A DNA stretch of 64,000 bases, from positions 65,495 to 129,494 of the forward strand of contig JAXGQR010000009.1 in the NCBI GenBank assembly GCA_040766325.1, read 5' to 3'. Every line of letters begins with the position of its first letter. Position 1 is the stretch's first letter. Positions 4,763-59,034 of the stretch are shown here, piece after piece. A program made the position numbers and the translations under genes. Source of the stretch: Dehalobacterium sp. Lineage in GTDB: Bacteria; Bacillota; Dehalobacteriia; Dehalobacteriales; Dehalobacteriaceae. The notes beneath the pieces were generated by a model. The model had not been told where the DNA came from, ran no database searches, and worked only from the letters and a program-made list of their open reading frames with translations.

Positions 4763-4792
4763 GTTGACACGAGGATAGATATTAGGATATGA
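4763..4792 (+). promoter_or_regulatory. sigmaA-type promoter for the riboswitch-ehu transcript
   Basis: TTGACA, an 18-nt spacer, then TATGAT, about 30 nt upstream of the aptamer. Confidence 0.4.
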
Positions 4793-4821
4793 TTATACAT
4801 ATTGTAGACGAAGACATTTTC

Positions 4822-4944
4822 AAAAGCTGAATTTCCCAAAAGGAAAACGGGGGAACCATTTCTGGGGTGAATCGCATGAAAAGAAAATTTTAATGCGTAG
4901 GGCGTGTTTCAGGTCCGAATCCGTCAGCTAACCTCGTAAGCGTG
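4822..4944 (+). promoter_or_regulatory. c-di-AMP riboswitch (ydaO-yuaA class), copy 1
   Basis: Carries the class-defining blocks ACGGGGGAACC, CUGGGGUGAAUC, GUAGGGCG and CCGAAUCCGUCAGCUAACCUCGUAAGCG in the canonical order. Confidence 0.85.
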
Positions 4945-5010
4945 TGAAACATTTGCTTTCTGTTTTGTTTAATTTTTCTTAATTTTTGAAAGTATTTGCG
5001 CGTTCTTTTG

Positions 5011-5036
5011 GGGGCCACACAATGGCCCTTTTTGTG
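5011..5036 (+). terminator. intrinsic terminator (expression platform of riboswitch copy 1)
   Basis: GGGCCA-CACAA-TGGCCC followed by TTTTT, located between the aptamer and the ehuB start. Confidence 0.7.
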
Positions 5037-5110: not shown

Positions 5111-5980
5111 ATGAGAAAGTTGGTTGCAGGATTATTGTTTGTCAGTTTATTGGTCTTTACAGGATGCGGGTCATCAAATTCAGATGGGGAATCAGACGAT
5201 CAAACCACATTTGAAAAAGTTAAAGAACAAGGGTACGTAACCGTTGGCTTTGCCAACGAAAAGCCTTATGCTTACCAAACACCTGAAGGAGAACTAACCG
5301 GTGAGGCCGTTGAGGTAGCCCGGGTTATTTTAAAAAATTTGGGCATTGAAGAAATGCGTGGTGAACTTACTGAATTCGGTTCTCTAATTCCGGGACTGCA
5401 AGCGAAACGCTTTGACATGATCACAGCCGGTATGTTTATTACCACGGAACGAGCCCAAGAAGTAGCCTTTGCTAATCCTGAATACAGTATCGGGGGAGGC
5501 ATGGGGGTTAAAAAAGGTAATCCTCTAAATCTGCATAGTTATGAAGATATTGCAAACCATAAAACTGCCATCGTCGCATTACCCAGTGGTGTCCAGGAGT
5601 ACGACTATCTAATCGCATCCGGGGTGCCCGAGGATCGTATTATGACTGTTCCGGATATCGCATCAGCCCTTGCCGCAGTGCAAGCAGGCCGTGCCGATGC
5701 CTTCACTGCAACAGGACCGGCAGTTCAGGCCACATTAGATTCCGCCAACGATCCCAATATGGAGCGTGTTATGAATTTTGAACTCATTCTTGAAGGGGAA
5801 ACGGTTCAAGATTATGGTGCCACGGCTTTTCGCAAGGACGATAACGATTTTCGGGAAGCATTTAATGCCGAACTAAAAAAACTGCAAGATTCGGGAGAAC
5901 TCTTAACCATTATCGAACCCTTTGGCTTTACGGAACAAGAACTCCCCGGTGATGTTACCATCGATGATTTAATAAAATAA
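5111..5980 (+). CDS. ehuB: ABC transporter substrate-binding lipoprotein, ectoine/hydroxyectoine EhuB-like
   Basis: Lipobox FTGC. The blocks IPGLQAKRFDMITAGMF, KKGNPLNLHSYEDIA, ANDPNMERV, TAFRKDDNDFREAFNAELKKLQDSGEL and IIEPFGF resemble EhuB as I recall it. Confidence 0.65.
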   Translation: MRKLVAGLLFVSLLVFTGCGSSNSDGESDDQTTFEKVKEQGYVTVGFANEKPYAYQTPEGELTGEAVEVARVILKNLGIEEMRGELTEFGSLIPGLQAKRFDMITAGMFITTERAQEVAFANPEYSIGGGMGVKKGNPLNLHSYEDIANHKTAIVALPSGVQEYDYLIASGVPEDRIMTVPDIASALAAVQAGRADAFTATGPAVQATLDSANDPNMERVMNFELILEGETVQDYGATAFRKDDNDFREAFNAELKKLQDSGELLTIIEPFGFTEQELPGDVTIDDLIK

Positions 5981-6026
5981 TCCATCGTAAAATCATCTCA
6001 GAATTTATTTTCATGTTACATGATAA

Positions 6027-6692
6027 GTGAAAGGAATTTACAATGTGAGTACTTTACTAACTCTGCTGCCCCCTCTTTTAGAGGGGGCCAAGGTTACAAT
6101 TCAAATCACCTTTTGGGGCATTATCCTGGGATTTATTCTTGCTTTTGTCGCGGGATTCGCCAGATTATCGAAGTATCGTTTGCTAAGAATTGTCGCAACA
6201 GTTTATGTGGAAGTCTTTAGAGGAACGTCGCTTCTGGTACAGCTTTTCTGGATCTACTTTGTTTTACCCCATTTTGGTCTTTTTCTGCCTACAATGCTTT
6301 CCGCCGTTTTAGCCTTAGGCCTAAACGCCGGAGCTTATGGCTCCGAAGTGGTACGCAGCTCAATCCTGAACGTTTCCAAAGGGCAAATAGAAGCAAGTAT
6401 TGCTCTCAATATGACCCCCTTCCAGCGCATGCGTCTGGTTATTTTACCCCAGGCTTTTGTCATGATGCTGCCTGGTTTTGGCAACCTGCAGATTGAACTC
6501 TTGAAAGGAACCTCCCTGGTATCTCTCATCACCTTAGCGGATATGACCTATCAGGGAACGATTCTCAGAGCTGCCACATTCCAAACAACAGAAATCTATA
6601 GCCTGCTTTTGATCATGTACTTCCTGCTTGCCTGGCCTCTAACACGAGGTATTCGTTGGTTGGAAAACAGGTTATCTATAGGGAGGTATTAA
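6027..6692 (+). CDS. ehuC: amino-acid ABC transporter permease (EhuC-like)
   Basis: His/Glu/Gln/Arg/opine-type permease with multiple TM segments. An alternative GTG start at 6045 has better SD spacing. Confidence 0.7.
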   Translation: MKGIYNVSTLLTLLPPLLEGAKVTIQITFWGIILGFILAFVAGFARLSKYRLLRIVATVYVEVFRGTSLLVQLFWIYFVLPHFGLFLPTMLSAVLALGLNAGAYGSEVVRSSILNVSKGQIEASIALNMTPFQRMRLVILPQAFVMMLPGFGNLQIELLKGTSLVSLITLADMTYQGTILRAATFQTTEIYSLLLIMYFLLAWPLTRGIRWLENRLSIGRY

Positions 6693-6695
6693 TAT

Positions 6696-7349
6696 ATGTG
6701 GGATTGGGATTTTGCATTTTCGATTCTACCGCAAATTTTATCAACTTTGAAAATTACCATTATCGCAACCTTTGGCGGATTCACCTTGGCTTTAGTCTTA
6801 GGGATGTTGCTCACCATTGCTGTTAGATCTCAGTTTAAACCTCTTTCTGTCATCACCGGGGGCTTCATTCAGTTTATCAGAAGTACCCCCCTCTTGGTAC
6901 AGCTATATTTTATCTTTTTTGTCCTGCCTCAGTATGGTATTAGCCTGTCGCCTTTAACTGCGGGAGTGATTGGCTTAGGTGTCCACTACAGTACCTATCT
7001 TTCTGAGGTTTACCGTTCCGGAATTGAAGCCATACCCCAAGGGCAGTGGGAGGTTGCCACAGCTTTAAACTTTAAACCTTGGCAGGTTTGGTCTCGGATT
7101 ATTATTCCTCAGGCGATTCCTCCCATTATTCCAGTGTTGGGCAACTATCTGATTACGATGTTTAAAGAAACGCCTCTGCTTTCGGCAATTGCTCTGGTGG
7201 AAATACTGCAAACTGCCAAAATCATCGGATCACAATCTTTTCGGTACCTTGAGGGTTTCACAATTGTAGGAATTGTGTTCTTGCTCTTAAGCTACCCGGC
7301 ATCGCTGCTCATCCAAAAATTAGAAGGAAGCTTAAGGAAGGAAGCTTAA
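6696..7349 (+). CDS. ehuD: amino-acid ABC transporter permease (EhuD-like)
   Basis: The second permease of the same family, 3 nt after the previous stop. Confidence 0.7.
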   Translation: MWDWDFAFSILPQILSTLKITIIATFGGFTLALVLGMLLTIAVRSQFKPLSVITGGFIQFIRSTPLLVQLYFIFFVLPQYGISLSPLTAGVIGLGVHYSTYLSEVYRSGIEAIPQGQWEVATALNFKPWQVWSRIIIPQAIPPIIPVLGNYLITMFKETPLLSAIALVEILQTAKIIGSQSFRYLEGFTIVGIVFLLLSYPASLLIQKLEGSLRKEA

Positions 7350-7380
7350 GCAAGAAAATGAATGTTAGGAGGAGGATTTT

Positions 7381-8217
7381 ATGAGTGTACAAATGGAACA
7401 ACTGCCGAAGATGTCCCATTCAAAAATAGCAAAGCAAAAAATTTTTAGTCAACCTATTGTGCGTTACCAAAAGATCAGTAAATCCTATGGAGATTTACAG
7501 GTATTACGAGAAATTGATTTGAACATTGCACCGGGCGAAAAGGTGGCGCTTATCGGCCCCAGCGGCTCAGGAAAAACCACCTTGGCCCGGCTCTTAATGA
7601 CCTTAGAGGAGCCTACATCCGGGGAAATCGAAGTAGAAGGAGAGCTTCTATGGCATCAAAAGGTTAATGATAAATTAGTTAAGGCCAAGGAAAGCCACAT
7701 CCGCAAGCTGCGCGGCAATATCGGCATGGTCTTTCAACACTTTAACCTTTTTCCCCATATGAATGTCTTAAAAAATGTCACTGCCGCTCCGATTAATGTA
7801 TTGGGGATTAAACCGGATATCGCCAAAGCAGAAGCCATGTCTATGCTGGAAAAGGTTGGATTGATCGATAAAATAAATACCTATCCTGCTCAGCTTTCCG
7901 GCGGACAAAAGCAAAGGGTTGCCATCGCTCGAGCACTGGTCATGCGTCCCAAAATCATGTTATTTGATGAACCGACTTCTGCCTTGGATCCTGAATTAGT
8001 GGAAGAGGTTTTAGAAGTGATCCGAGAAATTGCGGATGAAGGAGAAATGGCAATGCTCCTTATCACTCATGAAATGAATTTTGCCCGGGATGTAGCCGAT
8101 CGGGTTTGTTTCTTTGATGAGGGAAAAATCGTGGAGCAGGGAACACCGAAAAAGATTTTTAACAATCCTCAAAGCCCTCGGTTACAATCATTTTTACGAC
8201 GTTTTAACAGCCATTAA
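7381..8217 (+). CDS. ehuA: ABC transporter ATP-binding protein (EhuA-like)
   Basis: Walker A GPSGSGKTT, signature LSGGQKQRV, Walker B MLFDEPTSALD, and the LMTLEEPTSG block typical of EhuA-type proteins. Confidence 0.75.
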   Translation: MSVQMEQLPKMSHSKIAKQKIFSQPIVRYQKISKSYGDLQVLREIDLNIAPGEKVALIGPSGSGKTTLARLLMTLEEPTSGEIEVEGELLWHQKVNDKLVKAKESHIRKLRGNIGMVFQHFNLFPHMNVLKNVTAAPINVLGIKPDIAKAEAMSMLEKVGLIDKINTYPAQLSGGQKQRVAIARALVMRPKIMLFDEPTSALDPELVEEVLEVIREIADEGEMAMLLITHEMNFARDVADRVCFFDEGKIVEQGTPKKIFNNPQSPRLQSFLRRFNSH

Positions 8218-10589: not shown

Positions 10590-11366
10590 TTACCAACAGC
10601 AATGGTTCAAGGGACCGCTGCCTTTTCCTAAATTAAGGTTGGCATTCAGAGCGCAGATGATATAATCCTTGGCCCGGTGCACGCTTTCCTCTACACTGTA
10701 TCCTTGGGCCAAATTACAGGCAATGGCTGAGGATAAGGTACAACCTGTGCCGTGGGTGTTTTCATTATCGATCTTTGCTGCCGGAAACCAGGTGACCGCT
10801 CCGCCCGCATACAGCAAATCATCGGCAGAATCCTCTAAATGGCCTCCCTTGATTAAAATGTATCCCGAATAGTTTTCTCCGATTTTTTGGGCAGCCTTAA
10901 CCATATCCTCCCGAGCATGAATCTTCATCCCCGATAGACATTCCGCTTCAGGAATATTAGGGGTAATAATCAGAGCTAGAGGAATTAACTTCGTGATCAA
11001 GGCCTCCATGGCATCATCACTGAGCAGTTTACTCCCACTGGTCGCAACCATCACCGGATCCACCACAATATTTTGCACCTGGTACTCTTGTAACTTTTCC
11101 GTAATTTTTAAGATGATAGCCGGAGCGGAGACCATGCCGATTTTTACCGCATCAGGAAAAATATCCGTCATCACACAATTTATTTGCTGCCCGACAAAAT
11201 CCGGGTCAATATCCATAACCCCATAAACACCGGTGGTATTTTGGGCCGTTAAGGCGGTCAGCACACTCATGGCATACACTCTATGAGCGGTTATGGTCTT
11301 AATATCTGCTTGAATCCCCGCGCCACCGCTGCAATCGGATCCGGCAATAGTTAATACTTTTTTCAT
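10590..11366 (-). CDS. thiD: hydroxymethylpyrimidine/phosphomethylpyrimidine kinase
   Basis: TIAGSDCSGGAGIQADIKT at the N-terminus and the GTGCTLSSAIA motif. It is in an operon behind a TPP riboswitch. Confidence 0.85.
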   Translation of the reverse strand: MKKVLTIAGSDCSGGAGIQADIKTITAHRVYAMSVLTALTAQNTTGVYGVMDIDPDFVGQQINCVMTDIFPDAVKIGMVSAPAIILKITEKLQEYQVQNIVVDPVMVATSGSKLLSDDAMEALITKLIPLALIITPNIPEAECLSGMKIHAREDMVKAAQKIGENYSGYILIKGGHLEDSADDLLYAGGAVTWFPAAKIDNENTHGTGCTLSSAIACNLAQGYSVEESVHRAKDYIICALNANLNLGKGSGPLNHCCW

Positions 11367-12010
11367 TGAATTGCCTCCATCTCATCAAAGGAATTGATAT
11401 AACAATCACACATGCTTTCAATTGCTGCTTTTTCTTGCTCTGCCGAATTGTATCCTACCCCTACCACATAAAAACCGGCCTCTTTAGCCGTCTTGATACA
11501 GTGGAGGGCATCTTCAAATATCACGACCTCCCTGGGGTCACAGCCAAGGCGTTGCGCTGCCATTTGATAAATCTTGGGGCTCTCTTTACCACAGCCCACT
11601 TCCGGGCTGGTAATAATAAATTCAAAATAAGGGAGAATTCCTAACCGGTCCAAAACCTCTTTGGTGGTATCATGATCTGAGGCTGTGGCCACACACATTT
11701 TTGCCCCCTGGTCGCGGAGCTTTTTTAAATAATCTGCCACCCGGGGTTTAAGAGGGATGTTTTCCCGATACTCTTTTTCTGCCAGATAAAAAATTTGCTC
11801 GGCAATTTGTTTTTCATCCAGATCTAATCCATAGTTTTTCTTTAAATAGGCAGCAGCGTCAGCGACACTTAAGGGTCTTAAAACTTCCTGCAAATTAGGT
11901 TCCGGTGTAATATTATGGGATTTAAGAAAGGTTTTGCCCATATTTTCCCAGATATGCATCGAGTCCAACAAGGTTCCGTCTAAATCAAAAATGGCATATT
12001 TAATCTTCAA
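11363..12010 (-). CDS. HAD-superfamily hydrolase (subfamily IA)
   Basis: DLDGTLLDS motif I, a TTG start, and a 4-nt overlap with thiD. Confidence 0.7.
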   Translation of the reverse strand: MKIKYAIFDLDGTLLDSMHIWENMGKTFLKSHNITPEPNLQEVLRPLSVADAAAYLKKNYGLDLDEKQIAEQIFYLAEKEYRENIPLKPRVADYLKKLRDQGAKMCVATASDHDTTKEVLDRLGILPYFEFIITSPEVGCGKESPKIYQMAAQRLGCDPREVVIFEDALHCIKTAKEAGFYVVGVGYNSAEQEKAAIESMCDCYINSFDEMEAIQ

Positions 12011-12079: not shown

Positions 12080-12117
12080 AAGGAAAAGGGGGTACACCAA
12101 AAAAGTGCATCCCCTTT
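12080..12117 (-). terminator. attenuator/terminator of the TPP riboswitch
   Basis: On the minus strand: GGGGAUGCAC-UUUUUUG-GUGUACCCCC followed by UUUUCCUUUU. Confidence 0.6.
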
Positions 12118-12124
12118 AATCTCA

Positions 12125-12216
12125 ATGTGGTTCCCTTCGTTGGCATTATCCAAATCAGGTTCAAGGGTCGAAACCAAAATGTCTCCTCTCAGCCTGTATC
12201 AACAAGCTCCCCTGTA
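12125..12216 (-). promoter_or_regulatory. TPP (THI-box) riboswitch
   Basis: On the minus strand: CAGGGGAGC...GGCUGAGAGGAGAC...ACCCUUGAACCUGAUUUGGAUAAUGCCAACGAAGGGAA. This matches the THI-box consensus blocks. Confidence 0.9.
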
Positions 12217-12262
12217 TGAATTTAAAAACATCATATAATAAAATCTACCTCTTGTCAAATCC

Positions 12263-51460: not shown

Positions 51461-53992
51461 TCAAACGGAAACACACTCATTGTTGGAACGCAATTTAAGT
51501 TTCTCCACTGCTTGCTCCCGCATTTTATATTTCATAATTTTCCCTGCCGCATTCATGGGAAATTCTGTAACAAATTCTACATAGCGAGGCGTTTTATGTT
51601 TGGCCAGATGAGATCGGATATATTCTTTAAGTTCATCGGCGGTAAGGTTTTCCCCTTCCTTGAGAATCACACAGGCCATAATCTCTTCACCATAATCTTT
51701 GTCCGGCACCCCGATTACTTGCACATCCCTCACCTGGGGATGAGTATAAATAAAATCCTCAATCTCTTTGGGATAGATATTCTCCCCACCCCGAATGATC
51801 ATATCCTTGATCCGTCCGGTAATTTTATAGTAACCATTCTCATCCCGGCGGGCAAGATCACCGGTATGCAGCCATCCGTCTTCATCGATGGCGGCTTTCG
51901 TAGCTTCAGGCATTTTGTAATAACCTTTCATGATATTGTAGCCGCGGGCGACAAATTCCCCATCCACATTATCCGGCAAATCCTCTCCCGTCTCAGGATC
52001 AACAATCTTGCACTCTACCCCGGGCAAAGCTCGCCCCACAGTGTTAACACGCAGTTCAATGGAATCATCCACCCGGCTTTGGGTACATCCCGGGGAAGAC
52101 TCCGTTTGACCAAAAACAATGGTGATCTCCTTCATATTCATCTTATCTACCACATCCTGCATCACCTTAACAGGACAAGGACTTCCGGCCATGATGCCTG
52201 TTCTCATATGGGAGAAATCGGTCTTGGCAAAATCCTCATGTCCCATCATCGCAATAAACATCGTGGGCACCCCATGACAGCTGGTAATTTTCTCTTTATT
52301 GATGCATTCCAGAGCTAGCTTGGGCGAAAAAGCCGGGATGGGACAAATGGTCGTCCCATGGGTCATAGCCGCAGTCATGGCCAAAACCATACCAAAGCAA
52401 TGGAACATGGGTACATGAAGCAGCAAACGGTCCGCTGTGGAAAGATCCATGCAATCACCAATCGTTTTACCGTTATTCACCACATTATAGTGGGTAAGCA
52501 TAACCCCTTTGGGAAAACCGGTTGTGCCGGAGGTATACTGCATGTTGCAAACATCATTTCTATGAATGGCCTGGGCATAACGGTGTACAGTATCCTGAGA
52601 TACATTTTCCGCGAGGGCAATGGCTTCATCCCAAGACAGACAGCCCTTTTGCTTGGACTCAATAGTGACAATATTGCGTAGGAAAGGCAGCCTTTTTAAA
52701 TGTAAGGGTTCTCCGGGCCGGGCATTTTCCAGCTCCGGACACAGTTCTTTGATGATTCCCACATAATCCGAATCCTTATGGCCATCGATCATAACCAAAG
52801 TATGGGTATCGGACTGGCGCAATAAATACTCCGCTTCATAAATCTTATAAGCCGTGTTGACGGTAACAAGAACTGCTCCGATTTTAGTGGTGGCCCAAAA
52901 GGTAATAAACCATTGAGGTACATTCGTGGCCCAAATGGCTACATGATCCCCCGGTCGCACCCCCATAGCAATTAAAGATCTGGCAAAGGTATCCACATCA
53001 TCCCTGAATTGAGCATAAGTTCTCGTATAATCCAAGGTGGTATAGCGAAATGCGTATTGATGGGGGAATTCTTCTACCATCCGATCCAAAACCTGCGGGA
53101 AGGTTAGATCAATCAAGGCGTCCTTCTGCCAAACATATTTCCCGGTTTTGGCATTGTTATCGAAGAGATGACTTTTTTTTATATCCTTTTCCCGAAAACG
53201 GTTCATATAGTTGGCAAAATTGGGGAAAACAACTCCGGCATCACTTAGCTCAGGGGCCCAACGTTTAACCCATTCCAAAGATACATAACCTTCATAATTA
53301 ATGGAACGTAGAGCTAAAAGCATGTCTTCGATAGGCATATCCCCCTCTCCCATCATACGATAGGAAATCTTGCCATTCTCCACTACAGAATCTTTGGTGT
53401 GTACGTATTTGATATAAGCACCTAGGTTCTGTACCGTTTTTTCCGGTTCTTCTCCGGCAAAGCGATAGGGATGATGCATATCCCAAAGCGCAGCCACCGC
53501 ATCGCTGGCTGCATCATCAAGTAGTTTGCACAAACGGGAGGTATCTGTATAGACACCGTTGGTTTCAACCAACAAAGTGACGCCTTTTTCTTCCGCAAAG
53601 GGGATCAGGGCCCGTAGAGCATCAAGGACAACCTGATCGTCCACTTCTCCGGTAACGTGAGGTTCCAGATCGGCAAGAATCCGAATATAAGGAGTGCCCA
53701 GCTTAGCCGCCAGTTCAATATATTGTAAAATCTCTTCATGGTTTTGTTGGGCCTTTTCTTTAAATCTTAAACAACATCCCGAAGAAATACAAGGAATCTC
53801 CAGTTGTAAATCGGCAAGTTTTTTTACCGTTTGCGGTATCTGATCATCTGTAAAGGGTTGAGCACGCACGGCAAAAATCTCGTTACCCAAGCCGCGAATT
53901 TCAATGCCGTTAAAACCAACGTCCTTAGCCATAGAATAAATATCTGTCCAACTAAAATCAGGACAACCCAGTGTTGAAAAAGCAATTTTCAT
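51461..53992 (-). CDS. fusion protein: N-terminal xylose-isomerase-like TIM barrel (sugar phosphate isomerase/epimerase family) plus C-terminal AMP-forming acyl-CoA synthetase
   Basis: Residues 1 to about 280 are an AP_endonuc_2-type TIM barrel (MKIAFSTLGCPDFSW...). Residues from about 290 to 843 are an adenylate-forming enzyme (YTSGTTGFPKGV, GYNIMKGYY, TGDLARRDENGYYKITGRIKD, GKIMKY). Confidence 0.8.
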   Translation of the reverse strand: MKIAFSTLGCPDFSWTDIYSMAKDVGFNGIEIRGLGNEIFAVRAQPFTDDQIPQTVKKLADLQLEIPCISSGCCLRFKEKAQQNHEEILQYIELAAKLGTPYIRILADLEPHVTGEVDDQVVLDALRALIPFAEEKGVTLLVETNGVYTDTSRLCKLLDDAASDAVAALWDMHHPYRFAGEEPEKTVQNLGAYIKYVHTKDSVVENGKISYRMMGEGDMPIEDMLLALRSINYEGYVSLEWVKRWAPELSDAGVVFPNFANYMNRFREKDIKKSHLFDNNAKTGKYVWQKDALIDLTFPQVLDRMVEEFPHQYAFRYTTLDYTRTYAQFRDDVDTFARSLIAMGVRPGDHVAIWATNVPQWFITFWATTKIGAVLVTVNTAYKIYEAEYLLRQSDTHTLVMIDGHKDSDYVGIIKELCPELENARPGEPLHLKRLPFLRNIVTIESKQKGCLSWDEAIALAENVSQDTVHRYAQAIHRNDVCNMQYTSGTTGFPKGVMLTHYNVVNNGKTIGDCMDLSTADRLLLHVPMFHCFGMVLAMTAAMTHGTTICPIPAFSPKLALECINKEKITSCHGVPTMFIAMMGHEDFAKTDFSHMRTGIMAGSPCPVKVMQDVVDKMNMKEITIVFGQTESSPGCTQSRVDDSIELRVNTVGRALPGVECKIVDPETGEDLPDNVDGEFVARGYNIMKGYYKMPEATKAAIDEDGWLHTGDLARRDENGYYKITGRIKDMIIRGGENIYPKEIEDFIYTHPQVRDVQVIGVPDKDYGEEIMACVILKEGENLTADELKEYIRSHLAKHKTPRYVEFVTEFPMNAAGKIMKYKMREQAVEKLKLRSNNECVSV

Positions 53993-54050
53993 TTTATATT
54001 TTCCTCCTTCAGTCTCAATGTTAAAAATAGTTCACATGTCCGGTGTAAAT

Positions 54051-54340
54051 AAAAAAAGCCTTCATCTCAAAACAACTTGTTTGAGACGAAAGCTTTAACT
54101 TCCGCGGTACCACTCTTTTTGGTATAAAAATACCCACTCTGAGGCATCAGTCAAAATAACGAATGCCCTCTCATGATAACGGTGAGAATCCCGTTCATAC
54201 CTACTTGCTTTCCGCCGAAAAGCAGAAAACTTTCAGCTGACTGCTCAAGGGCGAGTTCACTGATTGCTCCGGGCACTGTTTTTCAGCAAACAACAGCTCT
54301 CTGAAGCCACGTTCCGCATCGTGTTTTCCCTGTCATAGCA
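54051..54340 (-). promoter_or_regulatory. T-box leader, specifier CUC (Leu), with terminator/antiterminator
   Basis: On the minus strand the elements are: a K-turn UGCUAUGACAGGG paired to CCCUUGAGCA; an AGAGAG bulge; a GCUGAAAA distal loop; specifier loop GUGAA-CUC-G directly abutting the lower stem (CUC at 54253-54255); T-box GAGUGGUACCGCGG (54102-54116); terminator AGCUUUCGUCUCAAA-N7-UUUGAGAUGAAGGCU followed by U7. Confidence 0.85.
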
Positions 54341-54358
54341 TTTAACCGATTGGAACTT

Positions 54359-54387
54359 AATTTATCAAATTTTATTCATCTTGTCAA
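54359..54387 (-). promoter_or_regulatory. sigmaA-type promoter of the T-box transcript
   Basis: TTGACA, a 17-nt spacer, then TAAATT on the minus strand. Confidence 0.45.
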
Positions 54388-54491
54388 TAGATTAACTAAT
54401 TTTTATCAATTTTTTGTTGTTAGCTTCTTGGGAGATTTTCCGTTAACCATGAGGCTTGAAGATAGAATCATGACTCTTTTGAGCATGTTTC

Positions 54492-54520
54492 TTGCATTTA
54501 TTTTCTTTTCATGTTATAAT
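54492..54520 (+). promoter_or_regulatory. sigmaA-type promoter of the riboswitch-eam transcript
   Basis: TTGCAT, a 17-nt spacer, then TATAAT. Confidence 0.55.
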
Positions 54521-54591
54521 TATAAAACAAATTTCACAAATTCTTTTCTGGTAATCATCAATTCACTTCACAAAATCATATCAATCCTCAT

Positions 54592-54699
54592 TCGCTGAGT
54601 TCTTGAAAAAGAAACGGGGGAACCATCACTGGGGTGAATCCTCATTAAGAGGTAGGGCGACACTTTTAGCCCGAATCCGTCAGCTAACTTCGTAAGCGT
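54592..54699 (+). promoter_or_regulatory. c-di-AMP riboswitch (ydaO-yuaA class), copy 2
   Basis: ACGGGGGAACC, CUGGGGUGAAUC, GUAGGGCG and CCGAAUCCGUCAGCUAACUUCGUAAGCG, collinear with copy 1. Confidence 0.85.
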
Positions 54700-54750
54700 A
54701 GAAAGGGAGGAGTTAAAGGATAGTATTGCTATCTTTAGATTACCCTTTTT

Positions 54751-54785
54751 GCTTCGGTCTTGGCTGCCGAAGCATTTATTTTTTC
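54751..54785 (+). terminator. intrinsic terminator (expression platform of riboswitch copy 2)
   Basis: GCTTCGG-N9-CCGAAGC followed by ATTTATTTTTT. Confidence 0.7.
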
Positions 54786-54886
54786 TTTCAATTGGTTTAT
54801 TATGGTGCTTATGTTTGGAAAAGGATTCAATTGATTTATTTTGATAAACTTTTTTATCAATAATTGTTATGAAGGAGGCGTTTCAT

Positions 54887-56221
54887 GTGTTAATCGAAAG
54901 TACAAAGCAACGTGAATTTAGTTTACGGGAAAAAAGGGAAATATCTTTGGAACGTGCAGCTGAACTTAAGCATAAGATTGATGATTATCTAGAAAAAAAA
55001 CCTCTCATTAAGACCGGTTTCGAAATGTCGGAAATCTTAGCTAGCAATAAAGAAAAAATTCTGGCTTACTTCAAGGCTACAGAAGAAGACTGGAATAATT
55101 GGCATTGGCAAATGTCCCATCGCATAACTGATGTGCATGTTTTGTCCCAAATCATGGGCATTGATAAAGAACGTCTATCGGGGATCGAACAAGTCGGCGA
55201 GCAGTATCGTTGGGCGATTTCTCCATATTATGTTTCCCTGATCAGACCATTTTCACTTGAGGATCCTATCATGCGCCAGTCAGTGCCCTCTGTTGAGGAA
55301 TTAGATGAATTAGGCGAAGATGACCCCATGGCTGAAGAGTTTACTTCACCGGCACCTTGTATTACCCGGCGTTATCCGGATCGCTTGATCATTAACGTCA
55401 CCAATCAGTGCGGCATGTATTGTCGTCATTGTCAAAGACGCCGCAATATCGGTGAGGTGGATAAAAACCAGACCAAGGCCAACCTGCAGGCAGCTTTGGA
55501 CTATATCAGAAAAAATCATGAAATTCGCGATGTATTAATCACCGGTGGTGACGCTTTGCTCTTAAGCGATAGCCAATTAGACTGGCTCCTTTCTGAGCTG
55601 GATCAGATGAGTCATGTGGAGATCAAACGCATCGGCACCCGCACCCCGGTAACATTGCCTCAGCGCATTACACCGGAACTATGCGCCGTGCTTAAGAAAT
55701 ATCCTCCAATCTATATCAATACCCAGTTTAACCATCCCCGAGAAATCACTCCGGAAAGTAAGCGTGCCTGTGATCTGCTGGTAGAAGCAGGCGTGATATT
55801 AGGAAACCAGGCAGTTCTTCTGAAAGGCATTAACAATGATCCTCATATTATGAAAAAAATGAATCAAGAATTGTTAAAAATCAGAGTGCGACCCTATTAT
55901 ATCTTTCATGCCAAAGCCGTAAAAGGCACAAAACATTTTATTACTACGGTAGATGAAGGGTTGGAAATTATCAAAAAATTACGGGGATTCACTTCCGGCC
56001 TGGCAGTGCCCACTTATATTATTAATAGCCCTTATGGTTACGGAAAAATACCCCTCTTACCCACCTATGTCCAGAAATACAACGGATATCGGGTTCGTCT
56101 GCGCAATTGGGAAAACCGAGAAAATGAATACCCCTTCTTCCCGAAGCAGAATACAAACACAGAATTAAACCGCCGCAACATGATCATGTTAGCGTTTTTA
56201 AAAATCATGATAAAAATATAA
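54887..56221 (+). CDS. eam: glutamate 2,3-aminomutase (KamA-family radical SAM/PLP enzyme)
   Basis: CxxxCxxC site CRHCQRRR. Collinear blocks ISLERAAELKHKIDDY, EEDWNNWHWQ, CITRRYPDRLIINVTN. Lys and Asn replace the two lysine-binding Asp residues of lysine 2,3-aminomutase (YIFHAKAVKGTKHF and YIINSPYGYGK). The GTG at 54887 sits 8 nt after AAGGAGG; the ORF-track ATG at 54869 contains the SD itself. Confidence 0.8.
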   Translation: MLIESTKQREFSLREKREISLERAAELKHKIDDYLEKKPLIKTGFEMSEILASNKEKILAYFKATEEDWNNWHWQMSHRITDVHVLSQIMGIDKERLSGIEQVGEQYRWAISPYYVSLIRPFSLEDPIMRQSVPSVEELDELGEDDPMAEEFTSPAPCITRRYPDRLIINVTNQCGMYCRHCQRRRNIGEVDKNQTKANLQAALDYIRKNHEIRDVLITGGDALLLSDSQLDWLLSELDQMSHVEIKRIGTRTPVTLPQRITPELCAVLKKYPPIYINTQFNHPREITPESKRACDLLVEAGVILGNQAVLLKGINNDPHIMKKMNQELLKIRVRPYYIFHAKAVKGTKHFITTVDEGLEIIKKLRGFTSGLAVPTYIINSPYGYGKIPLLPTYVQKYNGYRVRLRNWENRENEYPFFPKQNTNTELNRRNMIMLAFLKIMIKI

Positions 56222-56393: not shown

Positions 56394-57365
56394 CTATTTT
56401 AAGGCAAAGGACCGGGACAAAACATCCGTTCTTACCTCTCCCGAATGGAAGGAATTCCCGCTGTTTAAGTTACATAACCACACCTCAGCGGGATTAAACT
56501 GTTCCGGACTTAAATTAAAGAAATTATTATGGCTTTTTTTAATTTCCTCATAGGTGCGTCCATATTCGGGAGCGACACAGGAGGGAACTTGTTTTACCAC
56601 TTGAGCCAAGGTTTCATCCTCATCATACACATGATAAAGAACCGTTGAACCATAGGAAATGGCGTCATTGGTACGACCCAACCCGCTCAGGGTATTGGAG
56701 GCAACAGGTGAAACGGGACAAGTAGCACCCCCGGATATAACTTTTCCTAGATCATAACCTATTCTGCGCAGTTTAAATAATCCCGTCTCCAAGGCGCGGG
56801 CAGCCACCTGCACCGTACCTACAAGAGAGGTCGTGGGCGCGACCAAAACATAAAGATTCTTCATTTCACAGCGGCAAGCTTCCGCAATCTCTAGGAGGAC
56901 ATCCACCTGAGGAAGCCGATTGCTCTCCAGACATAGGATCGCAATCTCCGAATGATCCCGGTAACCCAGCATTTTAAAAAGACTGCCCCGATGAACGATA
57001 GCACAAGCCGGTCCGGAACCCATGAATAAATATTTGCCACTTTTAATGGGCCACCCGGCATACTGTGAAGCCATACAGGCGCGAACGGGATGATCTGTAA
57101 AAACCTCCACCTGGGGGAATTTTAACCCCCCAAAATCTCCCCAACTCAATTGGACCTGAGCCAGCCCGCCTAAGCAGACTTTAGAAAATATTATTCCTGC
57201 CTCCATACCTCCCGGAACATGAACACCGCAATCGATCACCGTGGCCTCGTTAAGACGATCCACTTTAACATTTAATTGTTCGCTGCGCGCCAAAAATTCC
57301 TGAATCAAGGAGAAAGCTTGGCGATTGGGACTTAGCTCAGGTATCTGGCTTAAGGGTAAAATCAT
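56394..57365 (-). CDS. mch: methenyltetrahydromethanopterin cyclohydrolase (Mch) homologue
   Basis: 323 aa, appears collinear with archaeal/methylotroph Mch as recalled. Blocks: ATVIDCGV..GG.EAG, FTDHP, SQYAGW, GSGPA, LYVLVAPTTSLVGTVQVAAR, GRTNDAISYG, FNPAEV. Confidence 0.75.
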   Translation of the reverse strand: MILPLSQIPELSPNRQAFSLIQEFLARSEQLNVKVDRLNEATVIDCGVHVPGGMEAGIIFSKVCLGGLAQVQLSWGDFGGLKFPQVEVFTDHPVRACMASQYAGWPIKSGKYLFMGSGPACAIVHRGSLFKMLGYRDHSEIAILCLESNRLPQVDVLLEIAEACRCEMKNLYVLVAPTTSLVGTVQVAARALETGLFKLRRIGYDLGKVISGGATCPVSPVASNTLSGLGRTNDAISYGSTVLYHVYDEDETLAQVVKQVPSCVAPEYGRTYEEIKKSHNNFFNLSPEQFNPAEVWLCNLNSGNSFHSGEVRTDVLSRSFALK

Positions 57366-57393: not shown

Positions 57394-59034
57394 TTATAAA
57401 CATGTTTCAATTCTTTTCCTTACTTTCTCTTCGCCCATAATCTGCTGCAGTGCCCAGATATCCGGGGAAGAGCTACGTCCGACAAGAGCGATACGAATTA
57501 CGGTACTGACATCCCCCACATGACCCTTGTACTGATCCGGGTTTTTCTTATAGTCCTTAGGTTTTGCCGCATAACCATTTTCGGTAGCAATAACTCTGAT
57601 TTTGTCAAACCATTGACTTTGATCATCACGATGATCATAAGTTGCCAAATACCCTTGTAAAATCTTTTTTACTTCCGTCTCATCGATGTTTTCGGGATAG
57701 GGATCAACAATCTGAAAATATTCATCAAAGTAGTAGCTGATAAAGTCAAATATTTGTGCGCAATAAATCAAATCCTTCCGGGGTTGTCTCGGATCATCCC
57801 GACCTACATCTAACAGTTTTTCCACCGCCGGCTGGTGCTCCAGAAGTAAATCAACAATGTGCCGGCGATAAGACTTGGCCCATTTTATTAAGAAATCAAA
57901 GATTTCCGGGGCAGGAATATTGGCCAGGGTATTTTTGCTAATATCATTCAGCTTATCTAAATCAAATAAAGCGCCGGAATTACTCATCTTCTCAAGAGTG
58001 AATTCAAACTCATCAATATTACTATCCGGGTTTGCGATTCTCCATTCTTCAAAATTAGAATTTAAAATCGTCATCAGATATTCACGCACTGCCACCGGAT
58101 GGTAACCTAATTCCATATAATACTTGCCTAATTCCGGATCTTTTTCTTTTGGACAATTTTCTTCTCGTGCCATTGTCGATTTTCATCAAATGTGCGGTAT
58201 GCGTAATATCGGCAATTCCCAATCCAAAGCCGTAAACAACTCATAATGAATGGGTAAAGTAGAAAGCCATTCTTCGCCTCTTACCACATGGGTCACACGC
58301 ATAAAGTGATCATCTACCACATGGGCGAAGTGGTAGGTGGGGATGCCATTGCCTTTTAAAATCACCACATCCTGATCATTAACCGGCATGGAAAGATATC
58401 CTCTGATACCATCAGCAATTTCAAAGGTTTGTTCCGGATTGCCCAGGGATTTTAAGCGTAAAACAAAGCGTTCCTCTTTCCCTATTCGCTCCATGATCTC
58501 GTCCAGGGATAAATTTCGGTCCCGGGCCCATTTACCATAATATCCGGTGTTAACATTTTCCGCCATCTGTTGTTTGCGAATTTCTTCTAATTCCTCTTCC
58601 GAACAAAAGCAGGGATAAGCTCTGCCTATCTCTACCAAGTATTTTGCTACCGTCTGATAAATTTCTGCTCTGTTACTTTGAAAATAAGGTCCGTAGTTTC
58701 CTTTCTCTCCATCCATCCCCGCTCCCTCATCAAACTTTAAGTCAAAGAATTCCAAAGAAGAAATGATGGTTTCTACGGCACCTTCTACCTTACGTTTTTC
58801 ATCTGTATCTTCGATGCGCAAGAAAAAGATCCCATTACTTTGGTGAGCCAAACGTTCATCAACAAACGCACCGTAAAGATTCCCCAAGTGAATAAAGCCG
58901 GTAGGGCTTGGTGCTAATCGGGTGACTTTGGCACCTACACCTAAGTCTCTCTGGGGATATACGGTTTCTTCATAATAAGCGATTGATTTTGTGATCTTGG
59001 GGAATAGCACATCAGCTAATTTTTTATTGTCCAT
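57394..59034 (-). pseudogene. gltX: glutamate--tRNA ligase (clostridial long form) interrupted by a single-base frameshift
   Basis: N-terminal ORF 58186-59034 (PSPTGFIHLGN HIGH region) ends ...DWELPILRIPHI*. In the frame 1 nt downstream the text continues ITHTAHLMKIDNGTRRKLSKRKDPELGKYYMELGY, carrying the KMSKS-type motif, and runs into ORF 57394-58173. The shift lies at about 58203-58212. Confidence 0.75.

Follow-up and report, generated by a model that had tools for sequence, protein, structure and literature searches.

The DNA analysed in this study, referred to as the window, is a 64,000-nucleotide stretch of a Dehalobacterium sp. genome (GenBank assembly GCA_040766325.1, contig JAXGQR010000009.1, positions 65,495 to 129,494 of the forward strand). 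We examined a locus in which a leader carrying a cyclic di-AMP (c-di-AMP) riboswitch precedes eam, a KamA-family gene whose product is assigned below to the glutamate 2,3-aminomutases (Table 1). A preliminary description of the same DNA had proposed this arrangement, and the KamA-family open reading frame (ORF) that it reported was found to run for 444 residues from an in-frame GTG at 54887 to 56221, with the stop codon at 56219-21. The start is the same as that of the Dehalobacterium formicoaceticum orthologue in NCBI (P0001, 422 residues, 91% identity), and both proteins open with MLI. In D. formicoaceticum, the orthologous locus occupies 1359749-1367017 of CP022121.1. At its C terminus, the window protein is 22 residues longer than the 422-residue homologues (56150-56221, + strand) and ends in ...NRRNMIMLAFLKIMIKI. 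The genes on both sides of eam lie on the opposite strand. None of the genes ablB, kamDE and kdd was found near eam.

Table 1. Features of the eam locus, in window coordinates.
Feature	Position	Strand	Description	Basis
Sigma-A-type promoter	54492..54520	+	TTGCAT (-35), 17-nt spacer, TGtTATAAT (extended -10)	Read directly
c-di-AMP riboswitch aptamer (ydaO class, RF00379)	54583..54714	+	110 bits	cmscan
Predicted antiterminator	54678..54769	+	54678-54707 pairs with 54743-54769	Minimum free energy structure of the leader
Intrinsic terminator	54750..54784	+	Stem 54750-58/54766-74, 7-nt loop, U-run 54775-84	Terminator scan
Ribosome-binding site GAAGGAGG	54871..54878	+	8 nt 5' of the start codon	Read directly; conserved in the D. 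formicoaceticum leader (L082)
eam, glutamate 2,3-aminomutase (radical S-adenosylmethionine (SAM), pyridoxal phosphate (PLP)-dependent, KamA family)	54887..56221	+	444 aa, monocistronic	

The window protein passed the NCBIfam equivalog model for glutamate 2,3-aminomutase (TIGR04368) with 694 bits, the cut-off being 650. The sister NCBIfam models all failed, with 458 bits against 525 for lysine 2,3-aminomutase (TIGR03820), 362 against 600 for arginine aminomutase, and 212 against 369 for EpmB. Both Pfam domains, Radical_SAM and LAM_C, were matched. The protein was then aligned to Clostridium subterminale lysine 2,3-aminomutase (LAM; PDB 2A5H; E=5e-117). In this alignment, YIYQCD293 of LAM corresponded to YIFHAK343 of the window protein, and FVVD330APGGGGK337 corresponded to YIIN380SPYGYGK387. 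Asp293 is therefore replaced by Lys343 and Asp330 by Asn380, exactly as the preliminary description had read the two sites. The PLP lysine is kept (K387, equivalent to LAM K337), and the CxxxCxxC motif is present as C175, C179, and C182. K343, N380, the CxxxCxxC motif, and the PLP lysine were all invariant among 19 homologues (alignment A1), so that the residue comparison proposed in that description gave Lys/Asn, and no Asp/Asp, in the 2A5H alignment and across the homologues. Ruzicka and Frey reportedly found in 2007 that the C. difficile glutamate 2,3-aminomutase has Lys/Asn in place of Asp293/Asp330 of LAM. The C. difficile enzyme is the basis of TIGR04368, the model passed by the window protein, and the two appear alike as KamA-family radical SAM/PLP proteins with the Lys/Asn pair. 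Judged by its sequence, the window protein is a member of the Lys/Asn subfamily (Eam, EC 5.4.3.9), and it would presumably have the corresponding activity.

The naming of such proteins has changed. It had been expected that automatic annotation would call the ORF lysine 2,3-aminomutase, which is outdated, since TIGR04368 of NCBIfam now names glutamate 2,3-aminomutase. Most homologues carry this name in NCBI, and some older NCBI/JGI records say lysine 2,3-aminomutase. We considered whether the window gene could nevertheless be a lysine 2,3-aminomutase, as its membership of the KamA family, its alignment with LAM, the surviving lysine names among its homologues, and the 'ablA' that White et al. 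list behind a Dehalobacter tandem riboswitch (PMC9337991) would allow. This is very improbable, because the lysine model scored below its cut-off while the Eam equivalog was passed, Lys and Asn stand in place of the two Asp residues that hold the epsilon-amino group of lysine, and the lysine-associated genes ablB, kamDE, and kdd were not found nearby. The protein was accordingly not classed with KamA/AblA (TIGR03820).

We next describe the leader upstream of eam. The promoter in the preliminary description, TTGCAT and TATAAT with a 17-nucleotide spacer, gave a single regular-expression match within the window. The hexamers lie at 54492-97 and 54515-20, with TG at -15/-14, and transcription is predicted to start at approximately 54527. 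A generic promoter scan was near background (8 sites against 6.5 expected) and did not include the eam promoter, because its -35 hexamer fits just three of six positions. The promoter call is mainly supported by the orthologous leader of D. formicoaceticum (L082, 2586-2614), in which the same TTGCAT-17-TGgTATAAT is kept while the transcribed spacer directly 3' of it has diverged.

The ydaO-class aptamer, previously placed at 54592-54699, proved to be the core of a longer RF00379 match. When the whole window was searched against Rfam, this match reached 110 bits, where the gathering score is 38 (E=2.5e-25), and covered the full model (positions 1-134); the covariance check suggested in the preliminary description thus came out far above the gathering threshold. 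A permissive scan of the leader (54340-54900) detected no Na+ riboswitch (RF03071) or other RNA family at E<=10. Since no Na+ aptamer appeared at this threshold, the eam leader is read as a single-input switch, and it was not grouped with the Na+/c-di-AMP logic gates.

A hairpin with a T-run had been reported at 54751-54785, and the terminator scan found it at 54750-54784 as the sole + strand site. The stem within 54750-54774 has 9 base pairs, 5 of them G-C, and is followed by TTTATTTTTT. Folded alone, the hairpin had an energy of -13.4 kcal/mol, and it formed once the aptamer nucleotides were withheld. When the leader was folded, the minimum free energy structure instead had the aptamer's conserved 3' half paired to the terminator's 5' arm and loop, and the energy of this antiterminator segment was -35.9 kcal/mol. 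As the predicted antiterminator recruits aptamer nucleotides, the logic would be OFF. The fold therefore predicts an expression platform made of a terminator and a mutually exclusive antiterminator, in line with the termination OFF switch claimed earlier. The D. formicoaceticum leader has an almost identical aptamer, and compensatory changes from GCTTCGG/CCGAAGC to GCTCCGG/CCGGGGC preserve its terminator stem. The identity of the aptamer and its alternative pairings were computed here; that the window leader responds to the ligand is presumed from them. Nelson et al. reportedly described the c-di-AMP riboswitch of Bacillus subtilis ydaO (kimA) in 2013. The ydaO (kimA) leader has the same aptamer class, terminator-based OFF logic, and a place in an osmotic/K+ regulon, but it acts on a K+ transporter gene, whereas the gene behind the window leader encodes a biosynthetic enzyme.

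The comparative survey that the preliminary description had proposed was performed as a genome scan with one genome per species, seeded with the Lys/Asn-specific peptides PYYIF[HQ]AK and Y[IV]IN[AST]PxGYG. We analysed the closest 80 loci (61-77% identity) among at least 579 species with a relative. The upstream sequence was too short in three of them, leaving 77 assessable loci. RF00379 was located immediately 5' of a Lys/Asn-type eam, on the same strand, in 65 of the 77, mostly with 85-109 bits. The single-aptamer form accounted for 61 of these 65 loci, and a tandem of a Na+-I riboswitch and RF00379 was present in the remaining four (L008, L012, L017, and L019). These results show that RF00379 before eam is the rule in this clade and not an occasional tandem curiosity. 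The Moorella thermoacetica locus (L051) bears RF00379. The riboswitch and eam were also found together outside Bacillota, in Thermodesulfobacterium thermophilum (L045) and in an Actinomycetota metagenome-assembled genome (MAG; L014). The occurrence in these two loci suggests that the regulator and the gene may transfer together, as one cassette that moves across phyla. In one further locus (L074, 2501-5000, + strand), two Lys/Asn-type eam paralogues stand in tandem with a 4-nucleotide gap and without a riboswitch.

Of the 65 riboswitch-bearing loci, 36 have a hairpin followed by a T-run in the stretch from the aptamer to the start codon by strict criteria, and 57 have one by a relaxed energy criterion. 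In five loci of Desulforamulus/Desulfotomaculum (L034, L036, L038, L041, and L058), the aptamer ends just 6-8 nucleotides from the eam start codon. Because the ribosome-binding site then falls inside the 3' tail of the aptamer, the platform in these five would be translational. The comparison implies that two kinds of expression platform, terminator and translational, exist among eam leaders. Through these five loci, it could be argued that the window leader, too, works chiefly at the level of translation, or that it switches ON, instead of terminating transcription. We regard this as highly unlikely, since the ribosome-binding site in the window lies 157 nucleotides past the aptamer with a strong terminator and U-run in between, the predicted antiterminator is built from aptamer nucleotides and gives OFF logic, and those members of the class that have been tested behave as OFF switches.

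We also searched for genes that accompany eam, by grouping into families the two genes closest to it on either side in the 80 loci. No conserved partner (acetyltransferase, glutamine synthetase, or catabolic genes) was found, and no downstream family occurred in more than 6 of the 80 loci. This absence fits a one-enzyme pathway. BusR-like genes adjoin eam in 9 of the 80 loci. In four of them (L062, L064, L066, and L076), eam is divergently paired with a gene for a protein of about 210 residues with GntR and TrkA_C domains, and all four are without RF00379, L076 at the gathering threshold and the other three at E<=0.1. The divergent intergenic regions of L062, L066, and L076 have a conserved promoter-like block in common. 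In the other five, which are the loci with the translational platform, the BusR-like gene is just upstream of eam on the same strand.

The BusR-like neighbours have the architecture of the class, namely a GntR winged helix-turn-helix at the N terminus, a coiled coil in the middle, and an RCK_C domain at the C terminus (Pfam GntR and TrkA_C). Compared with BusR structures, the BusR-like protein matched 7WJG with 5e-26 and 7B5T with 1e-23 over residues 13-197, that is, over its full length. The ligand pocket is only partly kept: conservation extends to the GAT(I/V) motif and P181 but not to G154, N157, W159, H160, and G180. Binding of c-di-AMP by these neighbours is plausible from such comparisons, and a protein sensor of this kind may substitute for the RNA where the riboswitch is missing. 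No BusR-like gene was found within the 64-kb window. In the BusR-busAB system of Lactococcus and Streptococcus (PMC8517857, PMC5919688), a compatible-solute function is likewise repressed by c-di-AMP, but the sensor is a protein, whereas that of the window eam is an RNA.

Previous reports already connect the elements of this locus. White et al. 2022 (Nat Chem Biol, PMC9337991) described tandem Na+/c-di-AMP riboswitches and named beta-glutamate as an osmoprotectant and eam as its gene. Their Supplementary Table 2 lists tandem Na+-I/c-di-AMP riboswitches before eam in Desulfotomaculum (Desulfofarcimen) acetoxidans and Pelotomaculum thermopropionicum. A connection of c-di-AMP and eam with beta-glutamate as an osmoprotectant has thus been published before, and the concept is not new; its presentation as new in the preliminary description was overstated. 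A search of the open literature for 'aminomutase' and 'c-di-AMP' found this paper as the sole relevant one. The leaders of D. acetoxidans and P. thermopropionicum resemble that of the window in having RF00379 upstream of a Lys/Asn-type eam, with the same osmoprotectant interpretation, and the protein of D. acetoxidans (P0034), which belongs to alignment A1 with its invariant K343 and N380, has 70% identity to the window Eam. They differ in being tandem gates of the 'A and not B' type, whereas the window leader has a single c-di-AMP aptamer.

A further leader in that study, from Dehalobacter sp. CF, bears on the switch itself, as c-di-AMP lowered its read-through in vitro to <5% (PMC9337991, Fig. 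4). This leader also places a c-di-AMP aptamer and an intrinsic terminator before a KamA-family gene, but it has two aptamers and two terminators and shares only the aptamer core with the window leader. The riboswitch (NC_018867.1:92413-92466) was assigned to 'ablA, lysine 2,3-aminomutase' (PMC9337991, Supplementary Table 2). Because every tandem-bearing locus that we inspected is of the Lys/Asn (Eam) type, this 'ablA' may be misnamed and is a candidate for the Eam type. Two exact-pattern scans of metagenome contigs with the published Dehalobacter untranslated region (UTR) gave nothing in one case and a single unrelated contig (L081) in the other, and BLAST of the UTR against all collected loci gave matches confined to the aptamer core. 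The unrelated contig is a 787-kb metagenome contig. Its segment 4192-5860 (- strand) has an RF00379-like aptamer directly 5' of a 476-residue citrate-synthase-like ORF, and this aptamer shares 76% identity with that of Dehalobacter over 125 nucleotides.

We then considered the role of the product. Beta-glutamate is recorded as a compatible solute (Roberts 2005, PMC1224877). A transcriptome of Moorella thermoacetica had eam among its most induced genes, together with a betaine transporter, and this was interpreted as osmoprotection (PMC7835215). The methanogen ablA-ablB operon (Pflueger et al. 2003) likewise uses a salt-responsive 2,3-aminomutase for a beta-amino-acid osmolyte, but its substrate is lysine, it needs a second gene (acetyltransferase), and it has no riboswitch.

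The window itself holds a second RF00379 riboswitch (4815-4957, + strand, 93 bits), with a promoter-like TTGACA-18-TATGAT site (4764-4793) and a terminator-like hairpin (5010-5030). This riboswitch precedes an ehuBCDA-type ATP-binding cassette (ABC) transporter for ectoine/hydroxyectoine (5111-8217, + strand), of which all four genes scored above the NCBIfam cut-offs. With two RF00379 elements in the window, one sensor class therefore serves both solute uptake and putative solute synthesis. At a related locus (L021, 29-5772, + strand), eam is preceded by a ProW/ChoW-like betaine/choline ABC permease and followed by a GT4 glycosyltransferase and a haloacid dehalogenase (HAD) protein of the sucrose-phosphate-phosphatase type, a pair that resembles a sugar-phosphate synthase and phosphatase (SPS/SPP). 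This gene cluster looks like a compatible-solute island. An osmotic role is hinted at by the tandem Na+ riboswitches, the ectoine-transporter riboswitch, the BusR-like neighbours, and the L021 cluster.

It could be proposed that eam is controlled by c-di-AMP, but that beta-glutamate is not a compatible solute and serves instead to tune the glutamate pool (K+/glutamate homeostasis), in catabolism, or as a beta-amino-acid building block. In Firmicutes, c-di-AMP signalling is generally known to be connected with K+ and glutamate, reviews describe actinomycete glutamate 2,3-aminomutases that provide macrolactam starter units, and the osmolyte role of beta-glutamate in this clade is itself only inferred. 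This alternative seems unlikely, since eam is monocistronic, no catabolic or biosynthetic partner is conserved over the 80 loci, and all the associations that we found are osmotic (Na+ riboswitch, BusR-like genes, betaine/choline ABC permease, and SPS/SPP-like pair).

We therefore favour, as the probable reading, a terminating single-input OFF riboswitch for c-di-AMP that controls a monocistronic eam, with beta-glutamate most likely a compatible solute. All the elements of the preliminary description were recovered, and each computational test that could be applied supported its interpretation. Under this model, transcription would start at the TTGCAT-17-TGnTATAAT promoter. With c-di-AMP bound, the aptamer (54583-54714) would retain its own 3' half, the hairpin at 54750-54774 and the U-run would form, and transcription would halt before eam. 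When c-di-AMP is low, 54678-54707 would pair with the terminator's 5' arm, RNA polymerase would read through, and Eam would be made. Eam would turn L-glutamate into beta-glutamate, which most likely accumulates under osmotic stress as an anionic compatible solute and a counter-ion to K+.

Several points weigh against this reading. The leader and the enzyme are known here from sequence alone, and it is by inference that beta-glutamate is given its role in the lineage. The Lys/Asn rule is based on a single characterised enzyme, that of C. difficile. RF00379 was missing in 12 of the 77 assessable loci; 11 of these were re-scanned and gave none at E<=0.1, and L076 was scanned at the gathering threshold. 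The 80 loci surveyed cover only part of the species with a relative, and across them no conserved downstream partner gene confirms the pathway. According to Roberts 2005 (PMC1224877), early nuclear magnetic resonance (NMR) data from methanogens spoke against the formation of beta-glutamate by an aminomutase. Owing to these data, the archaeal beta-glutamate precedent is not directly transferable, and the bacterial Eam route is a separate question.

The known outputs of c-di-AMP are chiefly the regulation of K+ and compatible-solute transport. With a conserved link from c-di-AMP to a one-enzyme osmolyte synthesis, the bacterial glutamate 2,3-aminomutase would gain a physiological role, and the c-di-AMP regulon would gain a biosynthetic output. 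To the published concept, the survey adds that the single-aptamer form is the usual one, that there appear to be two kinds of platform, and that BusR-like proteins may replace the RNA. D. formicoaceticum and Moorella thermoacetica are culturable carriers of the arrangement. More tentatively, we put forward a wider joint reading in three parts, which we hold to be possible but somewhat doubtful as a whole. In it, anaerobic Bacillota (Dehalobacteriia, Desulfotomaculia, Moorellia, and Syntrophomonadia) would have inherited beta-glutamate synthesis by Eam from their ancestors as a core biosynthetic output of c-di-AMP. The sensors would be interchangeable, namely a terminator riboswitch, a translational riboswitch, a Na+/c-di-AMP tandem, or a divergent BusR-like repressor where the RNA was lost. 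The riboswitch and eam would also move as a cassette into other phyla, as in Thermodesulfobacterium and the Actinomycetota MAG.

Other features of the window were recorded in the course of the analysis. A unit on the - strand (51461-54345) consists of a T-box leader (54079-54345, 101.5 bits) 5' of an 843-residue ORF, in which an AP_endonuc_2 (TIM-barrel) part at the N terminus is joined to an acyl-CoA-ligase/AMP-binding part. Such a gene is unusual as a T-box target, and it was also found in D. formicoaceticum. On the same strand, 56394-57365 scored 341 bits (cut-off 229) with the model for methenyl-tetrahydromethanopterin cyclohydrolase (mch, TIGR03120), here in a Bacillota genome, and the mch ORF adjoins eam in D. 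formicoaceticum too. The next segment (57394-59034, - strand) contains a glutamyl-tRNA-synthetase-like gene in two ORFs, one of 282 residues with the N-terminal catalytic part and one of 259 residues with the remainder. The D. formicoaceticum counterpart is intact (547 residues), and the split may possibly reflect a frameshift, a pseudogene, or a sequencing error. In addition, a thiamine pyrophosphate (TPP) riboswitch (RF00059, 59.8 bits) was detected at 12114-12223 on the - strand, upstream of the ORFs at 11363-12010 and 10590-11366.

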